Assembly: GCA_963740455.1 (NCBI GenBank)
Contig: CAVUEF010000012.1
Coordinates: forward strand, 148,298 to 212,297
Reading direction: 5' to 3'
Length of the DNA stretch: 64,000 bases
Origin: an uncultured beta proteobacterium
GTDB taxonomy: Bacteria > Pseudomonadota > Gammaproteobacteria > Burkholderiales > Burkholderiaceae_C
Shown here piece by piece: positions 14,818-46,279 of this stretch. Under the pieces are notes generated by a model. It had not been told where the DNA came from. It made no database searches and worked only from the letters and a program-made list of their open reading frames with translations. A program made the translations under genes and the position numbers. How positions within the stretch are numbered: the stretch's first letter is position 1; each line of letters starts with the position of its first letter.

Positions 14818-16728
14818 CCCGAGTTCGACACCAAACGCTGTAAGTGGTTGATTTGTATAGAGGTGGCCTTGTCGGCTGCCACTACAGCAAGGACATCTGG
14901 GGGTTATGGATTGGTTTCTTGATGCTCAGAGCGGCCAGCACGGTGGTCTGCTGGGCGTTGATGGTGGAGATGCCCGAGAGGGGCGGCGCCTGGTTGATGC
15001 GCACGCTGTGCCGCTGAATTCGCCGCAACTGCGCCAACGCCCTCTCGGGGCTCAGCTCGCTCTTGGCCAGCTTCAAACGGTGGCGCATCACGCGGTAGAC
15101 GATCAGCGCCATGAAGCAAAGCATCGCGTGCGCGCGGATGCGTTCGGGCAGGCGGTGGTAGACGGGGGCGATGTCGATCTCGGACTTCAGCACCCTGAAG
15201 CCGCGCTCGATGTCGGCCAGCGCCTTGTAGCGCTGCACCACCTCTTGCGGCGTCAAGTCGGGCACGTTGGTCACGAGCAGCAGCTTGCCGTCCATCAGCT
15301 CGGCCTGCGCCTTGGCCGCCTCATCCACGGTATAGGTGAACAGCTCGCTCTTGAGGTCCACCTTCACAATCTTGGCCAGGTGGGCCTCGCAGACCTCGTG
15401 ATACAGACGCGCCTTGGCGCCGCTGTCAGAGAGCTTGCGGCCACGTGCGGTGACGCCGGCGTCCTGACCGTCAAGCTTGCCCGCCCACGCCTGCGCCTTG
15501 TTCTTCAGCGCCGCGATGCGCTCACTGCGCAACTGCGTCTGCTCACGAGCTCGCTCAGGGTGATGTGCCACGACCAGGCGCAGTTCGCGCCAGCGTGTCT
15601 CGTCGATGATCTCTTGCGTGGCCGCTCCAGCCTTGGCGTGAATGGCCTGCAACACGTCGGTGAACTCGCCGTAGCGCCGGCCTGGCACTGCCAGAATGAA
15701 TTCCAGCGCTTGCCCACTGGGCAGCTTGATCTTGCCCAACTCGTCCATATTGTCCAGCGACAGGAGCCCGCGGTCGGCCACTACCACCAGCCGCTTGATG
15801 TGCGCGAAGCGCGCCAGCACCTTCCTGAGCGTGGGCAGCAAGGTCGGCGACTCGGCCTGGTTGCCATCGAACACCTCGTGGTAGATCGGCAGACCCTCTG
15901 CCGTCTGCACCACGCCGAGCATGAACTGGCGTGCAATCACGCCCTCCTTGGCCATGCCGTAGCGGCGCACATCGCCACCCTGCTCACTCAGGCCCGCCGC
16001 GCGAATGGTCGTCAGGTCGTAGAACACCAACGAGAGGTCTTGATCGACCAAGGGACGCAACAGATCCGCGACCACCGCATCGACGCCGGCCTGATGGTCC
16101 ATGAGTGCATCCATGGCGCGAAGCAATTGCTGGTGCGTCAGGGCGGCCGAATCCACCTCGGGAATGCTCACCGTCTCCAGCCAGCGCAGCACGCCGAGCT
16201 TGGAGTCCGCGTCACACAGGCGGTTGAAGACCATCACCCGCAGCGCATGCTCCACAGGCGTGGTGTACCGTGCCTTGCGGAACACACCGGCCAGTCTGTC
16301 AAAGCCCAATTCGCGCCAGAGTTGATCGAGCGCCCAGACGTCACCCAAGGCAAGAGCGGATTCGAACTCGACCTGAGGAGGCGTGGCAGTGGCGGCCGGC
16401 AGGCCCTTGGCACGCAGCAAGCCGCCGAGCAAAGCATCAACGCCACCGCCGGATTCATCAAGTCGGCCAATCGTGGCGACGGTGCGCTGCCGGGGTTTGC
16501 CTTCCTCGTTGCGATAAGACTCAACGAGCTGAAGATAGCTGTGGCCGCCTGAACGAGTGAGCTTGATGAACATGCGGCAAGTGTAGCAACATGTTCAACA
16601 CTTGCCAACACGCAATACAACAGACATTGCCACTACACCAAAATTCAGGCACCAGATGCAAGTTGTTGATTTGATTGGGACCAAGCGTTCCAAATCAACG
16701 AAAAATGGGGTTTGGTGTCGAACTCGGG
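14818..16728 (-). mobile_element. IS1634-family (IS4 superfamily) insertion sequence, about 1.9 kb
   Basis: Perfect 19-bp terminal inverted repeats CCCGAGTTCGACACCAAAC (14818-14836) and GTTTGGTGTCGAACTCGGG (16710-16728). 6-bp target-site duplication AGCCCC (14812-14817 and 16729-16734). Single transposase ORF inside. Confidence 0.9.
14882..16573 (-). CDS. IS1634-family transposase
   Basis: 563 aa. The N-terminus MFIKLTRSGGHSYLQLVESYRNEEGKPRQRTVATIGRLD is the characteristic start of IS1634-type DDE transposases. Fills the IS. Confidence 0.85.
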   Translation of the reverse strand: MFIKLTRSGGHSYLQLVESYRNEEGKPRQRTVATIGRLDESGGGVDALLGGLLRAKGLPAATATPPQVEFESALALGDVWALDQLWRELGFDRLAGVFRKARYTTPVEHALRVMVFNRLCDADSKLGVLRWLETVSIPEVDSAALTHQQLLRAMDALMDHQAGVDAVVADLLRPLVDQDLSLVFYDLTTIRAAGLSEQGGDVRRYGMAKEGVIARQFMLGVVQTAEGLPIYHEVFDGNQAESPTLLPTLRKVLARFAHIKRLVVVADRGLLSLDNMDELGKIKLPSGQALEFILAVPGRRYGEFTDVLQAIHAKAGAATQEIIDETRWRELRLVVAHHPERAREQTQLRSERIAALKNKAQAWAGKLDGQDAGVTARGRKLSDSGAKARLYHEVCEAHLAKIVKVDLKSELFTYTVDEAAKAQAELMDGKLLLVTNVPDLTPQEVVQRYKALADIERGFRVLKSEIDIAPVYHRLPERIRAHAMLCFMALIVYRVMRHRLKLAKSELSPERALAQLRRIQRHSVRINQAPPLSGISTINAQQTTVLAALSIKKPIHNPQMSLL

Positions 16729-34036: not shown

Positions 34037-34050
34037 TTGAACCAGTTCAA
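34037..34050. promoter_or_regulatory. FNR/Dnr/NnrR-type binding site in the nirS-nirE divergent promoter region
   Basis: Perfect palindrome TTGAACCAGTTCAA (TTGA-N6-TCAA). Centred 84 nt upstream of the nirS ATG and 65 nt upstream of the nirE ATG. Confidence 0.75.
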
Positions 34051-34942: not shown

Positions 34943-36850
34943 TCAGCCTTGAGGCGGCGCAGCCGACGGCAAGAACGCATCCGAAAAGCACATGTCGTCG
35001 CCGAGCCCGTGCGCGATGAAGGTCGGCACCGCCGCCTCGACCATCTTGACTGAGCCGCACACATAGACCTCGAACCCGCGCATGTCGGGAAAGTCGGCCA
35101 GCATGGCCTCGTGGACCAACCCGCGCCGTCCGGTCCATGCATCAAGCGGTTCGGCATCCGAGAGCACCGGCACGAAATGGAAGTTGGCATGCTCGCGCTG
35201 CCACTGTTCGGCAAGTTCGACCATGTACAGATCTTGCGGACGACGCGCGCCCCAGTAGAGCCACATCGGCCGCGTCAAGCCGCGCTGGAACGCGTCTTCG
35301 ACAATGCTCTTGACCGGCGCAAAGCCGGTCGCACCCGCCACGAACAGGATAGTCCGCTCGCTCTCGCGCAAGGTGAAGTTGCCCAGCGGCCCTTCGAAGT
35401 GAAGCGCGTCGCCCACCTTCATGTCGGTGAACACATGGCCGGTGAACCGACCGCCCGGAATGCGCCGCACATGCAGCTCGATGCGATCATTGTGATGCGG
35501 CGCATTGGCGAACGAGAATGCGCGTCGCCGGCCGTCGTCGGGAACGATGTTGATGTACTGGCCGGCGACAAAATCAATGCGCTCGGCGCCGGGCAGCACA
35601 ACGGTGAGCCGGGTCAGATCTTCGGTGAGGCGCTCAATTCTCTCGATGCGCCCGACATGGGCGCGCGGCGTCTCCCGCACCGCGTCCATCTCGCCCGCCA
35701 CCTCGATTTCGAGGTCCGACAAAGGCGTGGCGCAGCACATCAAGGCCTTGCCTTGGGCGCGCTGACTGTCTGGCAAGGCAGCACGCTGGTAGGCGCCATG
35801 GTCGACGCTGCCGTGCGACACCGTGCACAGACACACGCCGCAGCCGCCGTTGCGGCACTCATAGGGCAGGTTCAGGCCTTCGCGCAAGCCGGCCTCGAGC
35901 AAGGTCTCGCCGGCGCGGATGGCGACGGGGTCTTGCCGGCCTTGCACCGTCATGCGGAACTCCCCTGCCTTGGCGCGCCTGAATTTCGGCGGAAGCCAGG
36001 GCAGCGCCGCGATCAGCAAGGTCGCTGCGCCGAGCAGCGCCCATACGTTTGCCAGCGGCCACACATAGAGCAGCGGAAACACCGTCAGGTAGAACCAGTC
36101 GAGTTGCAGCAGCGCCGGCGCGATGTCGAGCTGCGCCGCGCCGCCCTGGCTCAGCGCGGGCTTGATCAGCGACAGTGCCAGCAGCGTCAACGCCACGCTG
36201 ATCAGAATCGGTCGCGGCGGGAGCGTCTTGGCTTTGGGAACGCGCTGCACATGGATCCACATCAGCAGCAGCACGAGCAGCGGAATGCCGATATGCATGA
36301 ACGACAGCAGCGAGAAGAAGCGGTCGTTGACGCTGGTCGTGTAGATGAAGTTGCGCACCAAGCTGCCACCAAAACCGGGCAGCCAGTCGAGCCACTCGAA
36401 GCTGGCCACAATGACGAACTGCGCCAGCTGATCCCAGGGCAGCATATAGCCGTTGATGCCCGATATATAGACGCCCCAGATCAGCGCCACGCCGCTGACC
36501 CACGAGAACCAGCGAAAGCCGCGCATGCGGTTGAAGGCAAAGTGGCGCAGCATGTGCAGCAGCATCGTCAGCACCATCGCGTCCGAGGCATAGCGATGCA
36601 GGCTGCGCAAAATGCCGCCCGCGAACCACTGGCCGTGCGTCAAGGCCTCGACCGAGCCGTACGCGCCGGCCACACCGGTCTCGAAAAACGCATACAGGTA
36701 CAGCCCGCTGCCGGCCACCAGCCAGAACAGCGCAAAGCTGATCTCGCCCAGGTGGTACAGGGGATTGAGCCGGTCGCCAAAGGCGCGGTTGAAGAGCGCC
36801 TCGACACGCATGAAACACCACTGCAACAGCGACTGAAGGCGCGTCATCAT
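34943..36850 (-). CDS. fusion protein: diheme cytochrome b (bc1-type N-terminal domain) + [2Fe-2S] ferredoxin + FAD/NAD(P)H ferredoxin-reductase module
   Basis: 635 aa. Two bis-His pairs spaced 14 residues apart (RSLHRYASDAMVLTMLLHMLR; FMHIGIPLLVLLLMWIHVQR). Plant-type cluster motif CRNGGCGVC..CC. FNR motifs RAFSFAN, GPLGNF, AGATGFAP, YVCGS. ATGA overlap with the upstream gene. Confidence 0.8.
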   Translation of the reverse strand: MMTRLQSLLQWCFMRVEALFNRAFGDRLNPLYHLGEISFALFWLVAGSGLYLYAFFETGVAGAYGSVEALTHGQWFAGGILRSLHRYASDAMVLTMLLHMLRHFAFNRMRGFRWFSWVSGVALIWGVYISGINGYMLPWDQLAQFVIVASFEWLDWLPGFGGSLVRNFIYTTSVNDRFFSLLSFMHIGIPLLVLLLMWIHVQRVPKAKTLPPRPILISVALTLLALSLIKPALSQGGAAQLDIAPALLQLDWFYLTVFPLLYVWPLANVWALLGAATLLIAALPWLPPKFRRAKAGEFRMTVQGRQDPVAIRAGETLLEAGLREGLNLPYECRNGGCGVCLCTVSHGSVDHGAYQRAALPDSQRAQGKALMCCATPLSDLEIEVAGEMDAVRETPRAHVGRIERIERLTEDLTRLTVVLPGAERIDFVAGQYINIVPDDGRRRAFSFANAPHHNDRIELHVRRIPGGRFTGHVFTDMKVGDALHFEGPLGNFTLRESERTILFVAGATGFAPVKSIVEDAFQRGLTRPMWLYWGARRPQDLYMVELAEQWQREHANFHFVPVLSDAEPLDAWTGRRGLVHEAMLADFPDMRGFEVYVCGSVKMVEAAVPTFIAHGLGDDMCFSDAFLPSAAPPQG

Positions 36851-38250
36851 GGCAAGTTCCGGGTCGCAGCCGGGCGCCGCATCGCGCGAATCATGACGAC
36901 CACAAACAGCAGCCCGCCAACAATGGCCACCAGGCCGCCCAGGCCCATCAACCCCATGCCGGCGATCTCACCGAAGCCGCGCAGCACCTGCTCGGCGCCG
37001 GCCACCTTGCGCTGCACGCCATAGCCCCCCGACCAGACCAGGCCGGTGATATGCATCAGCTGGCCCACGCCGTAGACGCCGGGCTGCAAGGCCGCGAGGC
37101 GGCCGCTCGGCGCGGCGTAACCCAATTGCGGCAGCAAGTGATAAGCCAGGCCCATCAGCGCCAGCGTGACCCCGACGATGCAGCCGTGGTAATGCGCCGG
37201 AATGCGCACGTCGGCACCATTGATGAAGACGCCGATCAGCCCGCCCGACGCGAACAGCACGATGGACCAGATGAGTGCTGCGCGCAAGGCGCGGGTCGTC
37301 GTCTCGCTGCGCGGCATGGACGGCAGTGCCAGCACCACCGCCAAGGCAATCGGCACGATCGCCACGCCGCCGCCCAGGCGCATCGCCCAGGTCAGCAGAT
37401 TGCGGTGCTCGACCGACGCGATCGGGTAGGCGAGATAGGCGTAAGGCGTGACGAATACGCCCACCAGCGCCAGCACGAACATCAGCAAGGCGATGCGGGG
37501 GCTCAGCAGCAGCTTGGCGCCACACGCGCTGGCCAGCCACAGCCAGGCCACCAGCATCAGCAAGGTCCAGGTGAACTGGAGCGCATGCCCGCCGCCCCAG
37601 AACAGGACTTCGTAGTACATCTTGCCGACCAGCATCGGCGGCGTTGTCGCGAACGACCAGGCAAAGGCCAGCAAAGCCACCGCTGCCGAGACGGCGGCGG
37701 CATTCAGCCCGAAGTGCAGCACACCATCGCCGCCGAAGCCCAGGCCGAGCTTGGGCGCAGTGAACAAGCTGCGCAGCACGAGCACACCGGCGCCGAGCGC
37801 AAAAATCAGCAGGCCGGCCATGAACAGCGGGCGCTCAAGCACCGGGATGTAATTGGCCATGATGGGGTCGCCGTGCCCGATGAACGCCGCCAGCGCCATC
37901 AGGCTGGCACCCGTCCCGCTCAAGCCCAGAGCCGCCCAGCCCCAGGCCAGGCCGCGCGTCGATCCGTTCAGACTCCAGAGCAGCCCCGCCAGCGCCACAA
38001 ACCACACCAGCACCGACAGATCGACATGCACGACCAGCGCGACGCGAAAGAAATCCGCGCCGGGCAGGATCTGGTTGATGAGCGGCGTGCGCGACGCCAC
38101 CAGCAGCACCGAGAACAAGCCCGCGCCGATCAGCGCAATCAGTCCGAGCCACAACCAGGCGCGCGCCAGTTGACGCTGCGTGTCGCGCGGTACCGCCAGC
38201 GTGTACGGGTGGCCGTCGGCCAGTGAAGGGTCGAATGGAGTGGATGTCAT
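36847..38250 (-). CDS. highly divergent heme-copper-oxidase subunit-I-like 12-TM protein (stand-alone; NnrS-like alternative not excluded)
   Basis: 467 aa. Histidines at HCO-like spacing: H75 (VVHVD), H222 (FWGGGHALQF, compare cbb3 WWYGHNAVGF), E281-H282 where HCOs have HH, H353/H355 (AHYHG). ATGA overlaps at both ends. Confidence 0.5.
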   Translation of the reverse strand: MTSTPFDPSLADGHPYTLAVPRDTQRQLARAWLWLGLIALIGAGLFSVLLVASRTPLINQILPGADFFRVALVVHVDLSVLVWFVALAGLLWSLNGSTRGLAWGWAALGLSGTGASLMALAAFIGHGDPIMANYIPVLERPLFMAGLLIFALGAGVLVLRSLFTAPKLGLGFGGDGVLHFGLNAAAVSAAVALLAFAWSFATTPPMLVGKMYYEVLFWGGGHALQFTWTLLMLVAWLWLASACGAKLLLSPRIALLMFVLALVGVFVTPYAYLAYPIASVEHRNLLTWAMRLGGGVAIVPIALAVVLALPSMPRSETTTRALRAALIWSIVLFASGGLIGVFINGADVRIPAHYHGCIVGVTLALMGLAYHLLPQLGYAAPSGRLAALQPGVYGVGQLMHITGLVWSGGYGVQRKVAGAEQVLRGFGEIAGMGLMGLGGLVAIVGGLLFVVVMIRAMRRPAATRNLP

Positions 38251-38765
38251 CGCAGTGTGATCCCGCCCTTGGCCGGATCGAAGTCGATCACCAGAATTTG
38301 CGCCGGTTTCAATGTCACGCTGGCTTCGCGCACAAAGTCGAAGCCTGGCGTGCGCACATCGTTCTTCAGCCGGATCGCCAGCTGATGGGTGCCGGCGCTG
38401 ACCTGCAGGCGCTGGTAGAAGGCCGATGCACCGTCGCGCGACAGGCCCGAAGGCATCGCTACATGGTGCAGCACGCGCTTGCCATCGAGGTCGAGCTCCA
38501 CCGTGATCGGCGAGCGCTCGCGCGGACACACCACCGGCGCGCGCATATTGGGCGGCAGCTTGGCCAGCTCTTGCGGCGTCGCCTTGTGGCACGCCGACAC
38601 CGGCAAGCCCTGGTGGTTGAAGCTGAACTTGATCAAGGCCTGGTCGGGCGCCAGGTGGCGGTACGGCGGCCAGTTGGAGAACGCGCCAATGAACAGCGCG
38701 AACAATCCGTACAGCAGCGCCTGCGCGATCCAGGCCTTCGGGGTGAATGGGGTCTTGTCAGTCAT
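38247..38765 (-). CDS. membrane-anchored periplasmic protein of unknown function (single N-terminal TM helix plus a beta-rich domain of about 130 aa)
   Basis: 172 aa starting MTDKTPFTPKAWIAQALLYGLFALFIGAF. No CXXCH and no CuA motif. 8-nt overlap upstream and ATGA overlap downstream. Confidence 0.6.
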   Translation of the reverse strand: MTDKTPFTPKAWIAQALLYGLFALFIGAFSNWPPYRHLAPDQALIKFSFNHQGLPVSACHKATPQELAKLPPNMRAPVVCPRERSPITVELDLDGKRVLHHVAMPSGLSRDGASAFYQRLQVSAGTHQLAIRLKNDVRTPGFDFVREASVTLKPAQILVIDFDPAKGGITLR

Positions 38766-40296
38766 GGGATGGGGTAAGGCATTGTGCCCGCAAGGCAAGC
38801 CGCTGGCGCAAGCGCAGCAAGGCCGCTTGCAAGGTGGACTCTGCGCCCGCATCGGCCCAGGCCAGTTCGAGTTGATCAAGTGGCACCGAGTCGCGCAGGT
38901 GGGGCTCACGCAGCCCTTTCAGCCGCTCGGCGGTCCAGCGTTGGCCGAGCCGGAATTCGCAGCCGCCTTGCGAGCAGCCGCTGACCAGCACGCCGTCGGC
39001 ACCGTCGCGCAACGCGTACTCGATGAACGAGGGCGGCAGCTGGCCGGCGCACATCAGGCTGAAGACAACAACATCGGGGGCTTCGAGCGCGCTGACCTTG
39101 GCACCGCAATCGCAGCCAAACACGACGATCTTGTGCGGCGCATCGGCCAGTCCTTGCGAGAGGCGCCGGCGCAGTGCGCCGATGGGGGCGGACGGCATGT
39201 CGATGCCGGTGACAAGTTCCGCCGCGCCGCGAAACGGTGTGGACGAGGGGCAGGCGCCAACGCAGATGCCGCAGCTCGCGCACAGGTCGGCGTCGACCTG
39301 TGCCATCTGGCGGATGCTGCGCACGGGATGCGCCACCATCGTCACCGCGGCATACGGGCAGTCGTCGAAGCAGCGACGGCAGCCGTTGCAATTGGCCGCG
39401 TCGACCACGGCAATCGGCGCCACCGCAGCTTGCGGCAGATAGGGCAGCGCGAACAGCAGCAAGAGCGCCGCCGACAGCAGCGTCCAGACGAAACCGGGCG
39501 AGGTCGCGTAGACGAGCGGATGCACAAACAGGAGCAGCCAATCAAAGCTCAGCGCGCCGGGCACGCTCGCCAGATCGGCTGGTGCCTGACTCATCACCGG
39601 CGCGACCAGCGCCAATCCGAGCAGGGTCAAACCGGTACCGATGGCCAGCGGGCGCGGCGGAAACACCGCCGCGCGGCTGATGCGCTGAATATGGAACCAC
39701 AGCGCGAACACCGACAGCAGCGGCACGCCCAGGTGCACGAACACCAGCAGCGAGAAGAGGCGGTCGCTCAGCGACGCCGCGTTGAGAAAGTTGCGCGTCA
39801 ACGGCGCGGCAAAGAGCGGCAGCCGGTCCAGCCACTCGGCCGTGGCGAGCGCCGAGAACTGGCCGAGCTGGTCCCAGTTCAACCAGAAGCCGCCAATCGC
39901 GCTGATGAAAACCAGCAGCAGCAAGGGCACGCCGGTGAGCCACGAGAAGCGGCGAAAACCGCGGTAGCGGCCGAACAGCGCCTCGCGCAGCAGATGGCCG
40001 AGCATCAGCACGACAAAGGCATCGGCCGCATAGCGGTGCAGGCTGCGCAGCACGCCGCCCAAATACCACTGTTGACGTGAGAGCTGGTCAATTGATCGAT
40101 ACGCGTCGGCCACCGAGGTATCGAGCGCCGCATACAGGTAGATGCCGCTCAAACCCAGCAACCAGAACATCATGAAGGCCAGCGTGCCCAGGTGCCGCAG
40201 GGGATTGAGGCCGGAGCCGAACGCGCCATCGAAACCGTGCTCGCAGCGCCGGTAGCCGGCCAGCGCCAGCAGGCGGATCGATCGCAGCGGGTGCAT
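38758..40296 (-). CDS. fusion protein: diheme cytochrome b (paralog of the 34943-36850 N-domain) + 2x[4Fe-4S] ferredoxin + MvhD/FlpD-like domain
   Basis: 512 aa. Bis-His pairs RSLHRYAADAFVVLMLGHLLR and FVHLGVPLLSVFALWFHIQR. Cluster motifs CNGCRRCFDDCP and CASCGICVGACP. MvhD-like segment VVFGCDCGAKV..MCAGQLPPSFIEYALRDGADGVLVSGCSQGGCEF. Confidence 0.75.
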   Translation of the reverse strand: MHPLRSIRLLALAGYRRCEHGFDGAFGSGLNPLRHLGTLAFMMFWLLGLSGIYLYAALDTSVADAYRSIDQLSRQQWYLGGVLRSLHRYAADAFVVLMLGHLLREALFGRYRGFRRFSWLTGVPLLLLVFISAIGGFWLNWDQLGQFSALATAEWLDRLPLFAAPLTRNFLNAASLSDRLFSLLVFVHLGVPLLSVFALWFHIQRISRAAVFPPRPLAIGTGLTLLGLALVAPVMSQAPADLASVPGALSFDWLLLFVHPLVYATSPGFVWTLLSAALLLLFALPYLPQAAVAPIAVVDAANCNGCRRCFDDCPYAAVTMVAHPVRSIRQMAQVDADLCASCGICVGACPSSTPFRGAAELVTGIDMPSAPIGALRRRLSQGLADAPHKIVVFGCDCGAKVSALEAPDVVVFSLMCAGQLPPSFIEYALRDGADGVLVSGCSQGGCEFRLGQRWTAERLKGLREPHLRDSVPLDQLELAWADAGAESTLQAALLRLRQRLALRAQCLTPSHD

Positions 40297-40302
40297 CAGG
40301 AC

Positions 40303-41130
40303 TCAGCTCGGCCGCGCTGCGCGCCGCAGGCGCCGCTGGTTGCGCCATTCGAGCAGAAAGAACCAGACCATGGCCAGCGCGAAGGTCACGCCGCCAGCGA
40401 TCTCGATGACCAATCCGTAATTCGTTCGGTAGGTGCCGGTCACCGGGTCGTACACGGTGCACAGAATGCGCACGCGGTCAATCAGCTCGGACAGCGGCAG
40501 GCCGGCCGGCATCGGCTGGTCGCGCAGCAGCAGCCGCATCGGCTCGCCGAGCTTGTCGCGCGACAGGTTTTCGCCATACACCTGGGCATAGACGCGACCG
40601 CGCGGGTCGAGCACCGACACCGCCAGCAAGTGATCGAAACCGGCCGGCGTGGCCACATAGCTGAAGCCGAAGTCGCGCGTCAAGGCGTCGACCGAGGCCT
40701 GCGGCGGGCTCAGAAACTGCCAGTTCGGCGCCTTGATGCGCATTTGCGCCGCAAACGAGCGCATCGCCGCCGGCGAATCGGACGGCTGGTTGAAACCGAT
40801 GCTGACGACGCTGAACTTGTCGGCACCGAACACCTGGCTCAATTGGTCGACGGCCTCGGCCAGCGACTTGGTGGTGGTCGGACAGACCTGGAAGCAACCC
40901 GTGTAGATGAAGCTCACCAACAGCGGCTTGCCGCGATAGTCGGCGAGCCGCACCAAGCGACCTTGCGTGTCGAGCAGTTGATGCGCGCCCACGTCGCGGC
41001 CGATGGCGGCCTGGCTGTCGCGCAGGGCGCTCGCCGCGTCAAGCGCGGGCGTGGCGCTACCGGCCGGTTGCGCAGCGAGCGGCGCGACCAGCACGGCCCA
41101 CAGCAGTGCCAGCGCAGCGCGGGAGTTCAT
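40303..41130 (-). CDS. senC: SCO1/SenC copper chaperone with a C-terminal membrane extension
   Basis: Start MNSRAALALL (ATGA overlap with the ctaB stop). CFQVCP (CxxxC) motif and conserved His (FDHLLAVS). C-terminal TM helix. Confidence 0.85.
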   Translation of the reverse strand: MNSRAALALLWAVLVAPLAAQPAGSATPALDAASALRDSQAAIGRDVGAHQLLDTQGRLVRLADYRGKPLLVSFIYTGCFQVCPTTTKSLAEAVDQLSQVFGADKFSVVSIGFNQPSDSPAAMRSFAAQMRIKAPNWQFLSPPQASVDALTRDFGFSYVATPAGFDHLLAVSVLDPRGRVYAQVYGENLSRDKLGEPMRLLLRDQPMPAGLPLSELIDRVRILCTVYDPVTGTYRTNYGLVIEIAGGVTFALAMVWFFLLEWRNQRRLRRAARPS

Positions 41131-42026
41131 CGCAACAGACCGTCGAGCGTCGCTGCCGCAAGCACCATGCTCAGCTGCACCAGCGACGCGAAGAACGCGC
41201 CCATCGCCGTCTTGCGATTGGTGTCGCGCAACAGCTGCCAGGTCTTGTGCACGAAGTGCGCGCCGCCCGTGGCAGCGCCCATCAAGTAGATCGGGCCGGC
41301 GCCAAAAAACGCTGGCAACAACGACGCGCCAACCAGTGCCAGGGTGCTGTAAAAAACAATCTGCGCCGCACGCTGCGGCCCCACCACGACGGGCAGCATG
41401 GGCACACCTGCGGCCGCATAGTCGGCCTGATTGGCGATGGCCAGGCTCCAGAAATGCGGTGGCGTCCAGAGGAACAGCACGCATGCCAGCAGCAGCGGCA
41501 GCGCGCTGATCTGGGGGTTGACCGCGGCCGCGCCGGCCAGCACGGCAAAACTACCGGCCAGGCCGCCGATCACGATATTCAGCGAGCTGCGCCGCTTCAG
41601 CCACAAGGTGTAGACCACGCCATAGAAGAACGCACCCAGAAACGTGTACAGCGCGGCCATACCGTTCAACACCAGCCAGGCGGCGGCCACCGCACCTGCC
41701 AGTAGCAGGGCGATCAGCACCAGCCAGGCCGGCGAATGCGGCAACGCGCCGGTCACGAAAGCCCGACCGCGCGTGCGCGCCATCAGGCGATCGGTGTCGG
41801 CCTCGGCGTACTGGTTGAACGCGCCGGCCGCGGCCGACGACACCAGTACCGACAGGGCCAGCACCACCACTTGCCAGACAGCGGGCGCAGGGCCCGGCGT
41901 GACCGCCAGCCCGACCAGCGCGGTGATCATGATCATCACGCCGATGCGCAGTTTGAACAGGCCGAGCACCTCGCGGACGAGGCCGACGGCAGATCGTTGC
42001 GCGGGATGTGCCGCGGTCGTGCTCAT
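41127..42026 (-). CDS. ctaB: protoheme IX farnesyltransferase (heme O synthase)
   Basis: 299-aa UbiA-family polytopic protein (..NQYAEADTDRLMARTRGR.., ..WTPPHFWSLA..). Confidence 0.9.
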   Translation of the reverse strand: MSTTAAHPAQRSAVGLVREVLGLFKLRIGVMIMITALVGLAVTPGPAPAVWQVVVLALSVLVSSAAAGAFNQYAEADTDRLMARTRGRAFVTGALPHSPAWLVLIALLLAGAVAAAWLVLNGMAALYTFLGAFFYGVVYTLWLKRRSSLNIVIGGLAGSFAVLAGAAAVNPQISALPLLLACVLFLWTPPHFWSLAIANQADYAAAGVPMLPVVVGPQRAAQIVFYSTLALVGASLLPAFFGAGPIYLMGAATGGAHFVHKTWQLLRDTNRKTAMGAFFASLVQLSMVLAAATLDGLLR

Positions 42027-42030
42027 GACA

Positions 42031-43731
42031 TCAGCTCAGTCCCCAGACCTGGGACAGGTACTTCCAGTTGATGAAGTAGTACAGCACGAAGGACACCAGG
42101 AACACCATCGCCAGCGCGAAGGTACCCGGCGCGGCAAACCCGGCCGAACCGTAGGTCTGTGCCGCGATGGTCGGCGCCGTGGGTGGAATCGGTGTGAACT
42201 TCGGGCTCACCGTGCCGCTGTCGAGCTTCTTGCCCCACAACAGCGAACCGACGGTCACAAAGATGTAGATCCCCCCGCCGACAATGGCGGCAATGCCGAA
42301 GATGCCGACCAGACCCATCATCAGGTAGGCGGCGCCCGGCCATTCATAGGCCATCGGCGAGCCGTTGAAGGCCAGGTCCCAGTGGCGGCGCGGAACACCC
42401 AGCGTGCCCGCACCCATCATGACCAGCACGAAGCCGTACATCGACAGGCCGAACAGATAGGGCTGCCACTGTGCCAGCTTGGGCGCGATCATCTCGCGCT
42501 TGAACAGCACCGGGATCAGAAAGTAGGTCAGCGCCATGAAGGTCAGGGTGGTCCCGATCACCACCGTGGCGTGGAAATGGCCCGGCACGTAGATGGTGTT
42601 GTGGATGATCATGTTGAGCTGTTCTGTGCCCATCATGACGCCCGAGATGCCGCCCAGGAAACCGAAGCCGATGATCGAGATGAACACGCCCGAGAACACC
42701 GGGTTGCCCCAGGGCGCCTTGCGCAGCCATTCGAACAGGCCCTTGTTGTAGCCCTTGGCGCGCTGCGCGACTTCGATCGCGCCGGGGATGGTGAGTCCGT
42801 GGATCATCGAGGCCAGCACCGCGAAATACATGAAGTAGCTGGTGTTGACGACCTTCCACGCGGTCGACATGCCGGGGTCGGCGAGCAGGTGGTGTGCGCT
42901 GGCGAGTTGCAGGAACAGGATGTAGAGCAGGAAGGCGCCGCGGCTGACGCGCTCGCTCATCGGCTTGGCGCCGAACGCGATGGCCGCCACCGCGTACCAG
43001 ATCGAGATGTGCGCGGCCACGTTGATCTGCTGCGACGAGTGGCCGAAGGCCCACCAGATGGTGCGGTACATGAGCGGATCAACCGCCTTGATGACGCCCA
43101 CCGACAGCAAGAAGGTGGGGATCAGGATGATGGCGCCCGACGCGATCGTGAACACGGCGATGATCGCCGCGGTGATGGCACCGAACGTGACCAGCGGCAC
43201 CGAGCCCTGGTAGGTCTTTTCGCGCTTGGCCACGACCAGCGTGCCGAAGAAGACAAAGCACGCGATAAGCGCGCCGACGGCGAACAGAATCAGTCCGAGG
43301 TAGAAATGCGGCGCGGCCATCATCGGCACGTACGACGTCATCATGACACTGGAGCCGCCCTGGAACACGGCGACATTGTTCATGATCCCGCCGATCAGCA
43401 TCAAGGCGAAGGCCAGCCACGCCATCTTGGGCGTCGCGAGCCGACAGCGCAACAGCGTTGACGACGCGAAATACAGGACGGCGATCTCGAAGAAGATGAC
43501 CCAGAAAATCAGCATGTCGATGCCGTGCGCGGTGAGCACCTGGTAGAAGGTGTCGGCCGCGAGCCAATGCACGGCGGGCCAGCGAGTCAACGCCACGCCG
43601 ATGGCCAGGATGCCACCGATGAGCAGGAACACGACCGCGACGAACGCGTTGGCCTTCATCAATTTTTCGGCATTGGCCTCGAATTGCAGTCCCGAGCGCG
43701 GGCAGGTTCGATAAGTTGTTGTTACGGACAT
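42031..43731 (-). CDS. heme-copper oxidase subunit I, B-family-like, lacking the cross-link tyrosine (candidate NO reductase of the sNOR/eNOR type)
   Basis: All six His ligands are present (LTAHG; WWAFGHSSQQ; ASAHHLL; PGHFHAT). Helix VI reads GHSSQQ instead of GHP(E/I)VY. ATG 43731 is preceded by GGAGG (alternative ATG 43755). Confidence 0.8.
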   Translation of the reverse strand: MSVTTTYRTCPRSGLQFEANAEKLMKANAFVAVVFLLIGGILAIGVALTRWPAVHWLAADTFYQVLTAHGIDMLIFWVIFFEIAVLYFASSTLLRCRLATPKMAWLAFALMLIGGIMNNVAVFQGGSSVMMTSYVPMMAAPHFYLGLILFAVGALIACFVFFGTLVVAKREKTYQGSVPLVTFGAITAAIIAVFTIASGAIILIPTFLLSVGVIKAVDPLMYRTIWWAFGHSSQQINVAAHISIWYAVAAIAFGAKPMSERVSRGAFLLYILFLQLASAHHLLADPGMSTAWKVVNTSYFMYFAVLASMIHGLTIPGAIEVAQRAKGYNKGLFEWLRKAPWGNPVFSGVFISIIGFGFLGGISGVMMGTEQLNMIIHNTIYVPGHFHATVVIGTTLTFMALTYFLIPVLFKREMIAPKLAQWQPYLFGLSMYGFVLVMMGAGTLGVPRRHWDLAFNGSPMAYEWPGAAYLMMGLVGIFGIAAIVGGGIYIFVTVGSLLWGKKLDSGTVSPKFTPIPPTAPTIAAQTYGSAGFAAPGTFALAMVFLVSFVLYYFINWKYLSQVWGLS

Positions 43732-43744
43732 GGTGCCCTCCGCC

Positions 43745-44284
43745 TTACTTGACATAGATGCGGCCCACCATCGTGTGATGGCCGATGCCGCAGTATTCGT
43801 TGCAGACTACCGAGAAGGTACCGGCCTGGTTGGGCGTGACGGTGACCACATGCTCGTAGCCCGGCACGATCTGGATATTGATATTGGCCGGCTGCAGCGA
43901 GAAGCCGTGGTTGTAGTCCATCGACGTCAGGTGCAAGCGATAGGTCTTGTCCTTCTCGAACTCGACGATGGGCCAGAATTTCCAGAGGCTTGCGACGATG
44001 TAGACATCACTGCCGGGCGGCGGCGCAACAACCGGAATCTTGTCGGCGGTCTCGGTGCGCACCGTGTACTTGTCGACCACCGCCTGGGCCTTGGCGGTGA
44101 ACATCGCCGAGGTGGTCTTGTAGGTCTCGGTGGAGAGATTCTGTTTGCCGTAGACATGCCAGCCGACCATCATGGCGAACATGATCAGACACCAGATCAG
44201 GGCAATCACGATCCAGGTGCCTTCGACACGGTCCAGCGGGTGTTTCCACCAAAGTCGTTCTGCGGGGGGCAGGATAGCGCTCAT
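43745..44284 (-). CDS. heme-copper oxidase subunit II with an intact CuA site
   Basis: 179 aa. One TM helix and a cupredoxin domain with DYNHGF and CNEYCGIGHHTM (H..CxExCGxxHxxM). Confidence 0.85.
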   Translation of the reverse strand: MSAILPPAERLWWKHPLDRVEGTWIVIALIWCLIMFAMMVGWHVYGKQNLSTETYKTTSAMFTAKAQAVVDKYTVRTETADKIPVVAPPPGSDVYIVASLWKFWPIVEFEKDKTYRLHLTSMDYNHGFSLQPANINIQIVPGYEHVVTVTPNQAGTFSVVCNEYCGIGHHTMVGRIYVK

Positions 44285-44308: not shown

Positions 44309-44464
44309 TTACTTGGCCAAAGGCACGGTGAGGATGTCGATGACGCCCCACAACGTGTAAACAACCATCGGCACCATCACGCCCAGAAAGAGCAGCAGAA
44401 ACGGGTTGTCGAGCAATTGCTGCATCATCGGAATCTTCTCGTCGGGGTTATTCGTGTCGCTCAT
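44309..44464 (-). CDS. small single-TM oxidase-associated subunit
   Basis: 51 aa (MSDTNNPDEKIPMMQQLLDNPFLLLFLGVMVPMVVYTLWGVIDILTVPLAK). AGGAGA lies before the ATG. 24 nt upstream of subunit II. First gene of the operon. Confidence 0.6.
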   Translation of the reverse strand: MSDTNNPDEKIPMMQQLLDNPFLLLFLGVMVPMVVYTLWGVIDILTVPLAK

Positions 44465-44522: not shown

Positions 44523-44536
44523 TTGACTTGAACCAA
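44523..44536. promoter_or_regulatory. imperfect FNR/Dnr-like box upstream of the oxidase operon
   Basis: TTGACTTGAACCAA (TTGA-N6-CCAA, one mismatch in the right half), about 65 nt upstream of ATG 44464, in the divergent region shared with ctaA. Confidence 0.3.
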
Positions 44537-44618
44537 GATAAGAATGCGCGATGTTGACATCAATGTTCCACGCTGTGCTCGCTCATATCTACGGGTTAGA
44601 CCTATCAGGGAATTCCGC

Positions 44619-45581
44619 ATGAACATGACCCAGCGTCGACAAACCTGGCTGCGACGTGCGGCCCTGTTGTGTGCGGCACTGGTGCTGGCCATCACCAGTC
44701 TGAGCGCCTTCATTCGGCTCTCGCAAGCGGGCTTGGGTTGCAGCGAATGGCCGCAGTGTTATGGCAGCCGCTTGCGTGACGCACAGCATGGCCGCGTGGC
44801 CAGCGTCACGGACAGCGCTGCGGTCGTCGCCGCGCGGCTCACGCATCGCGTGGTGGCGGTGACCGCCTTGCTGCTCGTGATTGCGATGGTGGTGCTGTGC
44901 TTCGGCAATCGGCCCTTCCTGCTGCGTGAGGGCATGCTGGCGTTGGCCTTGCTCGCCTTGGCGCTGGGATTGGCGGTACTCGGCCGCTGGACCGCAGGGA
45001 CGCGCGTGCCGGCGGTGGCGATCGGCAACTTGCTGGGCGGTCTGCTGATGCTGGCGCTGAGCTGGCGGTTGGCAGCCCGCGCGGCGCCGCGGCTCGACTC
45101 GCGATTGCGCTTCTGGGCAAGGATGGGGGCGGCAGTGTTGCTCATCCAGGTGACTGCGGGGGCACTGCTCAGCGCATCGTATGCGGGTCTGAGCTGTGCC
45201 GGAGCGCTGGATTGCCTGCGCACGGCGCAAGCCGCGCAGTGGCCTTGGCACGCCTTGAACCCGTGGCGCGAACCGGTGTTCGACGCCATGCAAAGCGCGC
45301 CGAACCCCGCGGGCGCACTCGTCCAACTGGTGCACCGCGGCGGCGCGCTGCTGACCTTGCTGGTGTTGGCCCCGCTGGGCGTGGCGGTGCTGCGTGGCGC
45401 GCACCAACGCGAGGGCGCGGCACTGCTGGCGCTGCTGGTCATCCAGATCGGCGTGGGCGTGCTCATGCCGATCGCGTCCCTGCCGCTGGGCTTGGCGCTG
45501 GCTCACAACATCGTTGCCGCATTGTTGCTGGCGACACTGGTCCGCCTAGAATGCGCTTCCATGAGTCAGGAGAAGCCCTAG
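44619..45581 (+). CDS. ctaA: heme A synthase (COX15/CtaA family)
   Basis: Start MNMTQRRQTW. GLGCSEWPQCYG motif, conserved His in TM helices (LTHRV, LVHRG, LAHNI), 8 TM helices. Confidence 0.85.
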   Translation: MNMTQRRQTWLRRAALLCAALVLAITSLSAFIRLSQAGLGCSEWPQCYGSRLRDAQHGRVASVTDSAAVVAARLTHRVVAVTALLLVIAMVVLCFGNRPFLLREGMLALALLALALGLAVLGRWTAGTRVPAVAIGNLLGGLLMLALSWRLAARAAPRLDSRLRFWARMGAAVLLIQVTAGALLSASYAGLSCAGALDCLRTAQAAQWPWHALNPWREPVFDAMQSAPNPAGALVQLVHRGGALLTLLVLAPLGVAVLRGAHQREGAALLALLVIQIGVGVLMPIASLPLGLALAHNIVAALLLATLVRLECASMSQEKP

Positions 45582-45596
45582 TGGAAATGCGCCAAT

Positions 45597-46279
45597 TCGA
45601 CGTGCCGCGCTACCTGTCGGTGCTGCCGCTGTTCAACGACATGAGCCCGACCGAGTTGGAAGGCCTGGCCAGCGGCTGCACGCTGCGCCGGTTGGCGCGC
45701 GGCGACGCGGTATTTCGCGTGGGCGAACCCTGCGAAGCATTCCACGTCACCGTGATGGGCCAGGTCAAGCTGTTCGCGATTTCGCCCGCGGGTCAGGAAA
45801 AAGTCATCGAGCTGGTCGGCCCCGGCCAGAGCTTTGCCGAGGCGCTGATGTTCACCGACAAGCCCTACATCATCAATGCGCAGGCGCTCACCGACACGTT
45901 GCTGCTGACTGTGCAAAAGAGCGCCGTGCTGGCCGAAATCGACCGGGACAGGCGCTTCGCGCTGCGCATGCTGGCGGGCATTTCGCGCCGTCTGCACGCG
46001 CTGGTGGGCGACGTCGAAGCCTATGCGCTGCACAGCGGTTTGCAGCGCGTGATCGGCTACCTGCTGCGCGACCAGGCGCCCGAAGATGAAAGCTCGAATG
46101 GCGAGGTCACCGTGTCGCTGCCGGTGAGCAAGGCCACCATCGCGTCGCGCTTGTCGCTGACGCCCGAATACTTTTCGCGCGTGCTGCACGAGCTGGAAGC
46201 CAAAGGCTTTATCGAGGTCGACAAGCGCGACATACGGATTCGCGACCCGCAGGCGCTGGCACGCTACCAGGCGTCCTGA
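45597..46279 (+). CDS. Crp/Fnr-family transcriptional regulator, Dnr/NnrR type
   Basis: cNMP-binding-like fold and a C-terminal HTH with the E--SR recognition motif (TPEYFSRVL). No N-terminal FNR Cys cluster. Sits beside the nir and oxidase genes. GTG 45591 is an alternative start. Confidence 0.85.

Follow-up and report, generated by a model that had tools for sequence, protein, structure and literature searches.

The locus described here raises the question of what a membrane cytochrome b does when it is fused to ferredoxin and MvhD/FlpD-like domains and lies among denitrification genes. The stretch of DNA analysed, below called the window, is 64,000 nucleotides long and comes from an uncultured beta proteobacterium of the Burkholderiales (assembly GCA_963740455.1, contig CAVUEF010000012.1, positions 148,298 to 212,297), and the gene in question lies on its minus strand at 38758..40296. 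An original prediction, made from the sequence of the window, described the product as a diheme cytochrome b carrying two [4Fe-4S] motifs and an MvhD/FlpD-like domain, and proposed that it and a downstream paralog deliver electrons from two alternative donors to one terminal enzyme. All three domain calls hold in Pfam, NCBIfam and PDB matches. From the sequence evidence we predict with high confidence that the protein, here named the cytochrome b-FlpD protein, forms a module for electron transfer that is linked in function to an eNOR-type nitric oxide (NO) reductase (NOR); confidence is moderate to low for the probable direction of electron flow, the acceptor, and a catalytic as against an assembly role. 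The protein and its predicted parts are:

38758..40296, minus strand: cytochrome b – 2x[4Fe-4S] – MvhD/FlpD fusion protein, 512 aa, ATG start (Pfam, NCBIfam, PDB sequence matches, same-architecture homologs)
39427..40296, minus strand: cytochrome b domain, aa 1-290, six predicted transmembrane (TM) helices (gap-free b6 alignment, hydropathy profile)
39241..39414, minus strand: two [4Fe-4S] ferredoxin motifs CxxCxxCxxxCP, aa 295-352 (Fer4 Pfam families)
38800..39120, minus strand: MvhD/FlpD-like domain, aa 393-499, with Cys395, Cys416, Cys441 and Cys446 (PF02662; MvhD alignment)

The cytochrome b, Fer4 and FlpD profiles all match above their gathering cut-offs. Cytochrome_B (PF00033) covers residues 34-206 (E 1.3e-16, 61.4 bits, cut-off 27.2), and Cytochrom_B_N_2 is also above its cut-off. 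The Fer4 families cover residues 295-352, with Fer4_6, Fer4_7 and Fer4 above theirs, and FlpD (PF02662) covers residues 400-493 (E 2.7e-13, 50.5 bits against a cut-off of 22.3). In NCBIfam, residues 295-499 match the C-terminal ferredoxin and MvhD region of HdrA2 (E 6e-24). Sequence searches of the PDB gave a gap-free alignment of residues 36-211 with the same residue numbers of cytochrome b6 (E 4.6e-16), and matched residues 399-490 to the MvhD chains 5odc_D and 9sw2_D (E 1e-9 to 1e-7). The motifs quoted in the prediction were all found again: RSLHRY...H, FVHLGVPLL....WFHIQR, the two CxxCxxCxxxCP motifs (C303-C313 and C339-C349) and MCAGQLPPSFIEYALRDGADGVLVSGCSQGGCEF.

Conservation was counted over an alignment of 29 sequences, with relatives down to 27-31% identity. 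His87, His101, His188 and His202 occupy the haem-ligand positions of b6 (bis-His, helices B and D) and are invariant (29/29). The hydropathy profile has six TM segments, equivalent to b6 helices A-D and two matching E and F, and this even number places the C-terminal Fe-S tail in the cytoplasm. The eight Cys of the ferredoxin motifs, C303/306/309/313 and C339/342/345/349, are likewise present in all 29. In the FlpD part, C395, C416 and C441 were found in 29/29 relatives and C446 in 25/29, and C397 is not conserved. Three of these four family-conserved Cys align with Cys of MvhD and are putative [2Fe-2S] ligands. The alignment shows that the protein carries ligands for two transmembrane haems and for three predicted cytoplasmic Fe-S clusters.

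The likeness to cytochrome b of the bc1 and b6f complexes includes, besides the gap-free alignment and the four haem His, a WDQ motif and an ef-loop motif probably homologous to PEWY. In place of PEWY, in the Qo-loop between the fifth and sixth helices, the protein has FDWL (aa 251-254), and the aligned position in the family reads x-D-W-[F/Y/L] with the consensus DWFYLF; D252 is found in 27/29 relatives, W in 25/29, and Pro is absent. This suggests that a P-side quinone-type pocket may survive. Unlike its counterparts, the protein keeps helices E and F alone of the C-terminal part, has no Cys at the haem cn position of b6 (position 35), and continues into a cytoplasmic Fe-S tail. The operon also differs from those complexes in having neither a Rieske protein nor a cytochrome c1/f; by Pfam no operon protein has a Rieske or c-type cytochrome domain, and the same holds for the called genes beside the homologs in L161 and L163-L165 (L numbers denote fetched loci). 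What we see is a bc-type cytochrome b reused without Rieske as the anchor for an Hdr/Mvh-style Fe-S module.

The cytoplasmic part has the same order as HdrA2, two Fer4 motifs and then MvhD, and resembles MvhD itself by the FlpD match and the alignments to 5odc_D and 9sw2_D. It differs from both in being tethered to a membrane cytochrome, in having its N-terminal Cys-rich segment down to one Cys, in lacking a hydrogenase or Hdr partner, and in occurring in nitrate-respiring and microaerobic bacteria instead of strict anaerobes. No hydrogenase, Hdr, formate dehydrogenase or ferredoxin partner genes were found in the operon or in the examined neighbourhoods. To call MvhD domains electron connectors, as the prediction did, is a fair description, and the nearest precedent is QmoABC of sulfate reducers and sulfur oxidisers, in which a di-haem cytochrome b/Fe-S fusion (QmoC) works with a subunit carrying an MvhD-like domain (QmoB) and links the quinone pool to cytoplasmic partners. 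The cytochrome b of Qmo is, however, of the HdrE/NarI type and not of the bc1/b6 type (PF00033), its MvhD domain sits on a separate HdrA-like flavoprotein, and its partner is adenosine 5'-phosphosulfate reductase and not a haem-copper oxidase (HCO).

A word-indexed search with the protein gave more than 5000 matches. The best 120 of these (67-100% identity) all have the same architecture, and where they are named in the databases it is as 'hydrogenase iron-sulfur subunit' or 'cytochrome b N-terminal domain-containing protein'. In an exhaustive search of 50%-identity representatives, at least 481 clusters matched at E<=1e-30, and every member checked had the same architecture. The members named belong to Burkholderiales, Rhodocyclaceae, Gammaproteobacteria, Lysobacterales, Deltaproteobacteria, Nitrospira/Nitrospirae, Nitrospinae and Aquificae, the last including Hydrogenivirga and Hydrogenobacter isolates. 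The fusion had been called unusual. Full-text searches for MvhD or FlpD together with cytochrome b returned no description of it and a published survey of new NOR families does not mention it, but with at least 481 clusters from several phyla it is not rare. The family is made of parts of known kinds and is common and mis-named in databases; the widespread name 'hydrogenase iron-sulfur subunit' is corrected by this finding.

The gene is the fifth of eight minus-strand genes (cox2-cox1-ctaB-sco1-cytochrome b-FlpD-small gene-HCO-like-cytochrome b-FNR) which, as the junction sequences show, all overlap or lie at most 6 nt apart. In the order of transcription, with the divergent heme a synthase gene placed first, the features are:

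44544..45581, plus strand: heme a synthase CtaA/COX15, divergent, true start probably near 44619 (Pfam COX15-CtaA, E 1.7e-30)
43745..44284, minus strand: HCO subunit II (cox2), CuA motif (H...CNEYCGIGHHTM) (COX2 and CoxB matches; motif read from the translation); 11-nt overlap with cox1
42031..43755, minus strand: HCO subunit I (cox1), B-family-related, 574 aa, cross-link Tyr replaced by Gln243 (Pfam COX1, E 5.7e-66); 4-nt gap to ctaB
41127..42026, minus strand: heme o synthase CtaB (TIGR01473, E 7e-76, above the curated cut-off); ATGA overlap with sco1
40303..41130, minus strand: SCO1/SenC copper chaperone (Pfam); 6-nt gap to the cytochrome b-FlpD gene
38247..38765, minus strand: small partner gene, 172 aa, N-terminal TM helix and periplasmic 8-strand beta-sandwich (AlphaFold2 model, pLDDT 92); its start overlaps the cytochrome b-FlpD stop by 8 nt, and an ATGA overlap joins it to the HCO-like gene
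36847..38250, minus strand: HCO-like protein, 467 aa, subunit-I fold (Pfam COX1, E 4e-11); ATGA overlap with the cytochrome b-FNR gene
34943..36850, minus strand: paralog, 635 aa, cytochrome b, plant-type [2Fe-2S] ferredoxin and BenC-like FAD/NAD(P)H FNR module (Pfam, NCBIfam)

The upstream oxidase genes probably encode an eNOR-type NO reductase. Subunit I reaches E 1e-43 to 1e-47 with the Thermus ba3 oxidase and with 7deg_A, a PDB entry deposited under the name cytochrome c oxidase subunit I; its 'FGHSSQQ' aligns to 'FGHPVVY' of 7deg_A, so that Gln243 stands at the position of the cross-link Tyr. Glu, Gln, Asp or Asn in place of this Tyr is a published predictor of NOR function (PMC3475470). 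The features of an eNOR type are present: a B-family-related subunit I without the Tyr, a subunit II with CuA, and adjacent ctaB and ctaA. The assignment to eNOR is drawn from the Gln, the ctaA/ctaB linkage, the occurrence of such genes in Accumulibacter and Gallionellaceae relatives, and an operon content as in Ferrigenium straubiae. The eNOR operon of strain KS of that species is described as eNOR II, eNOR I, heme o synthase, sco1, a 'scaffold' protein and two cytochrome b fusions, a match that is made by description alone; the two fusion genes are 2878407323 (cytochrome b and [Fe-S]) and 2878407319 (cytochrome b, [Fe-S], FAD and NADH) (bioRxiv 10.64898/2026.01.22.701106). Our first guess, an sNOR, was revised to a probable eNOR on Gln243, the ctaA/ctaB linkage and the Ferrigenium operon; the curated HMMs and phylogeny of Murali et al. 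set eNOR apart from sNOR, bNOR and others.

The HCO-like protein at 36847..38250 has the fold of an HCO subunit I but lacks the His-His pair of helix VII. The fold is supported by a comparison with the cox1 product of the window (hhalign probability 98.3) and by the ba3 subunit I as best Foldseek match (TM 0.65-0.69); a PDB sequence search found nothing. The protein keeps H75, H222, H353, H355, W218, Q225 and R414, with Y270-A271 at the place of the His-His pair. Across 73 aligned sequences taken from the fetched loci, the pair is present in every cox1 and in no HCO-like ortholog. The signature of the HCO superfamily is a His sextet, two for the low-spin haem, one for the high-spin haem and three for CuB/FeB (PMC3475470), and only four of the six are present here, two of the three CuB His being missing. 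It is probable that the protein binds two haems but no canonical CuB/FeB. By these residues it would not be a normal terminal oxidase, and the catalytically complete HCO of the locus appears to be the upstream cox2/cox1 pair. A gNOR, in which one His is changed to Asp, was considered and is not supported, since two His are missing and there is no Asp substitute. The protein may be the 'eNOR scaffold protein' of the Ferrigenium preprint. Its NCBI name is 'cbb3-type cytochrome c oxidase subunit I'; orthologs were seen in L001-L080 and in about 25 of L081-L165, and in L083, L091 and L165 the gene comes directly after NOR subunit I. CbbQ/NorQ-like AAA ATPase genes lie a few kb from the HCO-like gene in two loci (L164:13821-15402 and L097:15584-16357), which hints at a NorQ-type maturation system for a non-haem metal site.

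The arrangement was compared in two sets of loci. The close set holds 80 species-representative genome loci (62-75% identity), the denominators being the loci with enough flank, and the distant set holds 80 metagenome loci, fetched via the 32%-identical reference P0294 and mostly of a fused form described below, counted on the 50 contigs of at least 8 kb.

Close set, cox1 upstream: 60/60
Close set, sco1 directly upstream: 59/60
Close set, ctaB upstream: 59/60
Close set, HCO-like gene downstream: 67/68
Close set, cytochrome b-FNR gene downstream: 67/68
Distant set, eNOR-like cox1 (48-70% identical to that of the window): 43/50
Distant set, sco1: 47/50
Distant set, HCO-like protein: 24/50
Distant set, ctaB: 23/50
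Distant set, nirS: 11/50
Distant set, FNR head: 1/50

Synteny with HCO genes is thus near-universal, and the predicted link to HCO-like genes stands, with cytochrome b and FlpD profile matches in the protein and HCO-like genes beside its orthologs; the co-occurrence with 36847-38250, which had been suggested as a check, is 67/68 and 24/50 as listed. The position of ctaA is also conserved in most close loci.

The prediction had placed the operon in the company of denitrification genes, and the setting is as stated there: downstream lie nirS, a cytochrome c551-like open reading frame (ORF) and a SUMT/cobA-like ORF, the latter two named from sequence, followed in the list by counterparts of nirF, nirDL/GH and nirJ, recognised by Cytochrom_D1, NirDL-like and radical-SAM domains, and upstream there is a Crp/Fnr-type regulator. 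One element of the divergent promoter region is:

44523..44536, no strand assigned: FNR/DNR-type box TTGACTTGAACCAA (TTGA-N6-TCAA), in the divergent ctaA / HCO-operon promoter region (pattern search)

A similar box is found ahead of nirS (34037-34050). Upstream of cox2 a box with at least 8 of 10 matches occurs in 42/60 related loci, at 137-487 nt and mostly 240-345 nt, as compared to 17% of random 420-nt windows. A scan of the operon for terminator and promoter consensus sequences gave no more sites than shuffled sequence.

The small gene between the cytochrome b-FlpD and HCO-like genes appears to belong to the same functional unit. Many relatives of the cytochrome b-FlpD protein are 650-750 aa long, and their extra C-terminal 170-190 aa are homologous to the partner protein, with the motif ...LPxNMR...CPRERS... 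common to both. In these fused forms (for instance P0244, P0294 and P0321) the TM helix comes after the FlpD domain. The partner gene is present in 68/68 close and 48/50 distant loci, and in most distant lineages it is fused to the C-terminus. We regard the two as a Rosetta-stone fusion pair, and the functional unit predicted from this is larger than the single ORF. According to the model it would consist of a six-TM di-haem b domain, cytoplasmic 2x[4Fe-4S] and MvhD parts, a seventh TM helix and a periplasmic Ig-like domain. The partner protein has no Pfam match, even at E 10, and Foldseek compared its model with PDB folds and returned only generic Ig/CBM20-like sandwiches, none at E<=1e-3. 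A cupredoxin or subunit II-like domain, a Rieske-like domain and a PCuAC-like copper chaperone were considered and are not supported: Foldseek matched no cupredoxin or Rieske fold, and there is no Pfam match and no conserved Rieske/cupredoxin ligand. The periplasmic domain keeps two conserved Cys, one Met and one His, with no Cu-binding motif recognised; the His beside its first Cys is not conserved.

The paralogy with 34943-36850 was confirmed, the membrane parts being 52% identical over 275 aa (E 1e-90). A rough neighbour-joining tree of the cytochrome b domains, rooted at the midpoint, places the FNR-headed paralogs in one clade, sister to the Burkholderiales Fe-S-headed clade. The FNR-headed form appears from this to be a lineage-specific addition, which arose by a single duplication and replacement of the head. 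The Nitrospinae-type pairs are in the same tree an independent and older duplication, and L095 has a third, recent one. In five Nitrospinae-type loci (L163:7725-9050, L164:7684-8985, L084, L088 and L089) a NuoF-like gene with Complex1_51K, SLBB and NADH_4Fe-4S domains stands beside the cytochrome b-FeS-FlpD gene, and where the sequence suffices it is flanked by a paralogous copy on either side. An NAD(P)H flavoprotein, as predicted from the domains, is in this way shown to have been recruited twice independently, once as an FNR head on a duplicated cytochrome b and once as a NuoF-like gene between duplicated cytochrome b genes. In L164 the HCO-like gene, the CbbQ/NorQ-like gene and a second SCO1 gene come after this group. 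Cytochrome b is dimeric in the solved bc1 and b6f complexes. Since paralog pairs have been fixed repeatedly, and twice along with one NAD(P)H flavoprotein, we infer a heterodimer with a single NAD(P)H entry.

The best reading is that the operon encodes one NOR-associated transmembrane electron conduit, in which the cytochrome b-FlpD protein forms a cytochrome b heterodimer with the FNR-headed paralog and electrons pass from NAD(P)H to NO; we give it a probability of about 0.45. The CuB-less HCO-like protein would be part of the assembly. Electrons would enter from NAD(P)H through the FAD and the [2Fe-2S] cluster of the paralog, or elsewhere via NuoF-like proteins, move on through the MvhD [2Fe-2S] cluster and both [4Fe-4S] clusters, and traverse the membrane from haem bH to haem bL. 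On the P-side they might be taken up by CuA of the NOR, by the low-spin haem in the HCO-like protein or at a Qo-like quinone pocket, NO being the final acceptor. The MvhD domain would serve the flavoprotein as a docking and connector site and would not be an additional head for another donor. The sequences show the domains, the cofactor ligands, the predicted topology, the operon, the synteny across phyla and the repeated gain of flavoproteins, whereas the pairing into a heterodimer, the way in which electrons flow, their acceptor and the role in physiology are proposals. We prefer the conduit because of the invariant ligands, the tight operon, the HCO synteny down to about 30% identity, the FNR/DNR box, the twofold recruitment of a flavoprotein and the precedent of QmoABC; outward flow from NADH is also thermodynamically easy. 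Further support comes from Aquificae-type loci, where the homolog lies between nirS and nos clusters, next to COX2-COX1-COX1like-SCO1: it is divergent from small-COX2-COX1-(COX1-like)-SCO1-nirS-nirS, and in L165 the nos cluster is on its other side. The cytochrome b-FeS and cytochrome b-FNR proteins of the equivalent Ferrigenium operon have been detected in the proteome under denitrifying conditions (bioRxiv 10.64898/2026.01.22.701106).

Several observations weigh against the conduit. The eNOR of R. marinus reduced NO with TMPD/ascorbate as donor and no such module was mentioned, and the preprint calls the two cytochrome b genes 'rather unusual' among eNOR operons (bioRxiv 10.64898/2026.01.22.701106); together these suggest that the module is dispensable for catalysis. 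The loci were fetched through the cytochrome b-FlpD protein itself, so the counts tell how often it has an HCO neighbour and not how often eNOR operons carry it, and one Nitrospirae locus has a homolog without an HCO within 10 kb. The D-W motif conserved at the Qo-like position may mark a quinone site, for which the proposed path has no need. Furthermore, unless the NOR conserves energy, electrons flowing outwards from NADH would run down the membrane potential.

An alternative is that the module runs in reverse, as a bifurcating quinol:NAD+ oxidoreductase coupled to NO reduction. Quinol would be oxidised at the Qo-like site, one electron going to the very high-potential NOR and the other via the haems b and the Fe-S clusters to the flavoprotein, where NAD(P)H would be made. 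This is the explicit proposal of the Ferrigenium preprint of May 2026, which speculates on a supercomplex coupling NO reduction to NAD+ reduction and adds the proteome detection (bioRxiv 10.64898/2026.01.22.701106). The conservation of the D-W motif (27/29 D, 25/29 W) also speaks for it, as does the discussion of QmoABC in the same confurcation/bifurcation terms, and members of the family are common among lithoautotrophic groups with a need for reverse electron flow (Nitrospinae, Nitrospirae and Aquificae, and the Ferrigenium equivalents). Such a scheme needs a first-electron acceptor, but no Rieske-type or other obvious one is encoded, the partner domain being an Ig-like sandwich without Rieske/cupredoxin ligands, and inward flow to about -320 mV would be opposed by both the redox potential and the membrane potential. 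Most genome carriers are, moreover, Burkholderiales metagenome-assembled genomes and isolates, and many of the carrier genera in that order are heterotrophs without a shortage of NADH; we consider reverse operation unlikely. It is conceivable, if rather doubtful, that the locus encodes an unrecognised respiratory assembly, a Rieske-less bc-type cytochrome b heterodimer with MvhD and an NAD(P)H head, docked with the CuB-less HCO-like protein and the eNOR, which would act either as a quinone- and cytochrome-c-independent NAD(P)H:NO oxidoreductase or by Qo-site bifurcation coupling NO to NAD+ reduction. For lithoautotrophs that oxidise Fe(II) and nitrite, the bifurcation version would, if true, amount to a new way of transporting electrons in reverse.

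The in-vitro activity of the R. marinus eNOR, which does not need the module, would also be explained if the latter were a NOR biogenesis factor, a transmembrane metalloreductase or chaperone like CcoG or the eukaryotic FRE/STEAP proteins (di-haem b and FNR) that gives the periplasm reducing power for Cu(II) reduction or for SCO1-dependent CuA/CuB assembly, with the HCO-like protein as scaffold. The gene is nearly always beside SCO1 and often beside ctaB and ctaA, and for operons of this kind the preprint mentions an 'eNOR scaffold protein of unknown function' (bioRxiv 10.64898/2026.01.22.701106). CcoG, a cupric reductase in the membrane, carries 2x[4Fe-4S] and a periplasmic Ig-like domain, and the layout here, with a membrane domain, 2x[4Fe-4S], a TM helix and a periplasmic Ig-like domain, parallels it. 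There is, however, no homology to the FixG membrane part or to FixG_C, the shared Pfam families being generic Fer4 alone, and the periplasmic domain showed no recognisable conserved motif for binding Cu. Coupled translation of four large cofactor-rich proteins and the repeated gain of an NAD(P)H dehydrogenase are more typical of a stoichiometric respiratory complex. Biogenesis is a serious rival to the conduit on account of the constant SCO1 linkage and of the NO reduction by isolated R. marinus eNOR with artificial donors; we give it a low probability. The model of the original prediction, two homodimeric anchors with alternative donors, NAD(P)H via FNR and a ferredoxin or Hdr/Mvh-like partner via MvhD, draws on the different heads of the 52%-identical anchors, and lineages with the Fe-S/FlpD form alone must indeed use a donor other than a fused FNR. 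Against it, 67/68 close loci keep both genes, which belong to one operon and are coupled in translation, the examined neighbourhoods hold no hydrogenase, Hdr or ferredoxin gene that could supply the second donor, and the single NuoF-like gene between two Fe-S/FlpD paralogs in Nitrospinae-type loci suggests one flavoprotein per pair. As the FNR-headed paralog is lineage-specific (1/50 distant loci) and cytochrome b has been duplicated at least three times, two alternative donors are not favoured here, and we hold that model to be improbable.

The conduit can be compared with other transmembrane electron exporters. NOX, FRE, STEAP and MsrQ belong to these, and NOX/FRE proteins pair a di-haem b membrane domain with an FNR module. 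The paralog also joins a di-haem b to an FNR module, but the membrane domains are not homologous and the likeness is architectural. NOX/FRE and MsrQ export electrons outwards, in the direction proposed for the conduit; the cytochrome b-FlpD protein is not a member of the NOX/FRE, MsrQ or Qmo families. In the sNOR clusters a different protein holds the same position after senC. The 'orf1' of the norSY-senC-orf1 cluster of ammonia oxidisers was rejected as an equivalent, judged via its Bacillus counterpart cbaD1, which has 570 nt, 190 aa and six TM helices as compared to 512 aa with Fe-S motifs here. The organisation of the cbaD1-type cluster has also been reported for nitrifiers.

The Ferrigenium preprint is the only mention of such proteins that was found in the literature, and it says nothing of an MvhD/FlpD domain, a fused periplasmic domain, CuB ligands missing from the HCO-like protein or a spread across phyla. 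New here, as far as can be told, are the MvhD domain and the fusion with a periplasmic partner, an HCO-like protein short of metal ligands, the variant with NuoF, the recurrent duplications and the breadth of the family. The eNOR type is reported to rank with the most abundant NO reductases in nature, and the module is a concrete candidate for the missing electron-supply or coupling device of these enzymes. It would alter estimates of energy conservation in denitrification and bears on the formation of NADH in Fe(II) and nitrite oxidisers.

Two further features lie near the divergent promoter region:

44309..44464, minus strand: small one-TM ORF, about 51 aa, ahead of subunit II (ORF and TM prediction)
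45212..46279, plus strand: Crp/Fnr-family regulator, start codon uncertain (cNMP_binding and HTH_Crp_2)

Small ORFs of 51-57 aa are found at the same position as the former in L161, L163, L164 and L165. In the Hydrogenivirga locus (L161:12345-14411) the homolog is followed by a hemerythrin-domain gene, a 413-aa protein without a Pfam match and an Rrf2-family regulator, a set typical of NO-stress regulons; the 413-aa protein was tried as an HCO-like homolog and rejected (hhalign probability 0.1).

Elsewhere in the window, a plus-strand ORF of 1907 aa at 6284-12007 combines several ABC ATPase P-loops with the UvrA interaction and DNA-binding domains. At about twice the size of a normal UvrA, it looks like a tandem-duplicated UvrA paralog. 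The segment 12001-22000 has a lower G+C content, 0.55-0.62 as compared to about 0.65 elsewhere, and holds a DDE transposase gene (14882-16573, minus strand); this may be mobile DNA, or DNA gained recently, next to the denitrification island.

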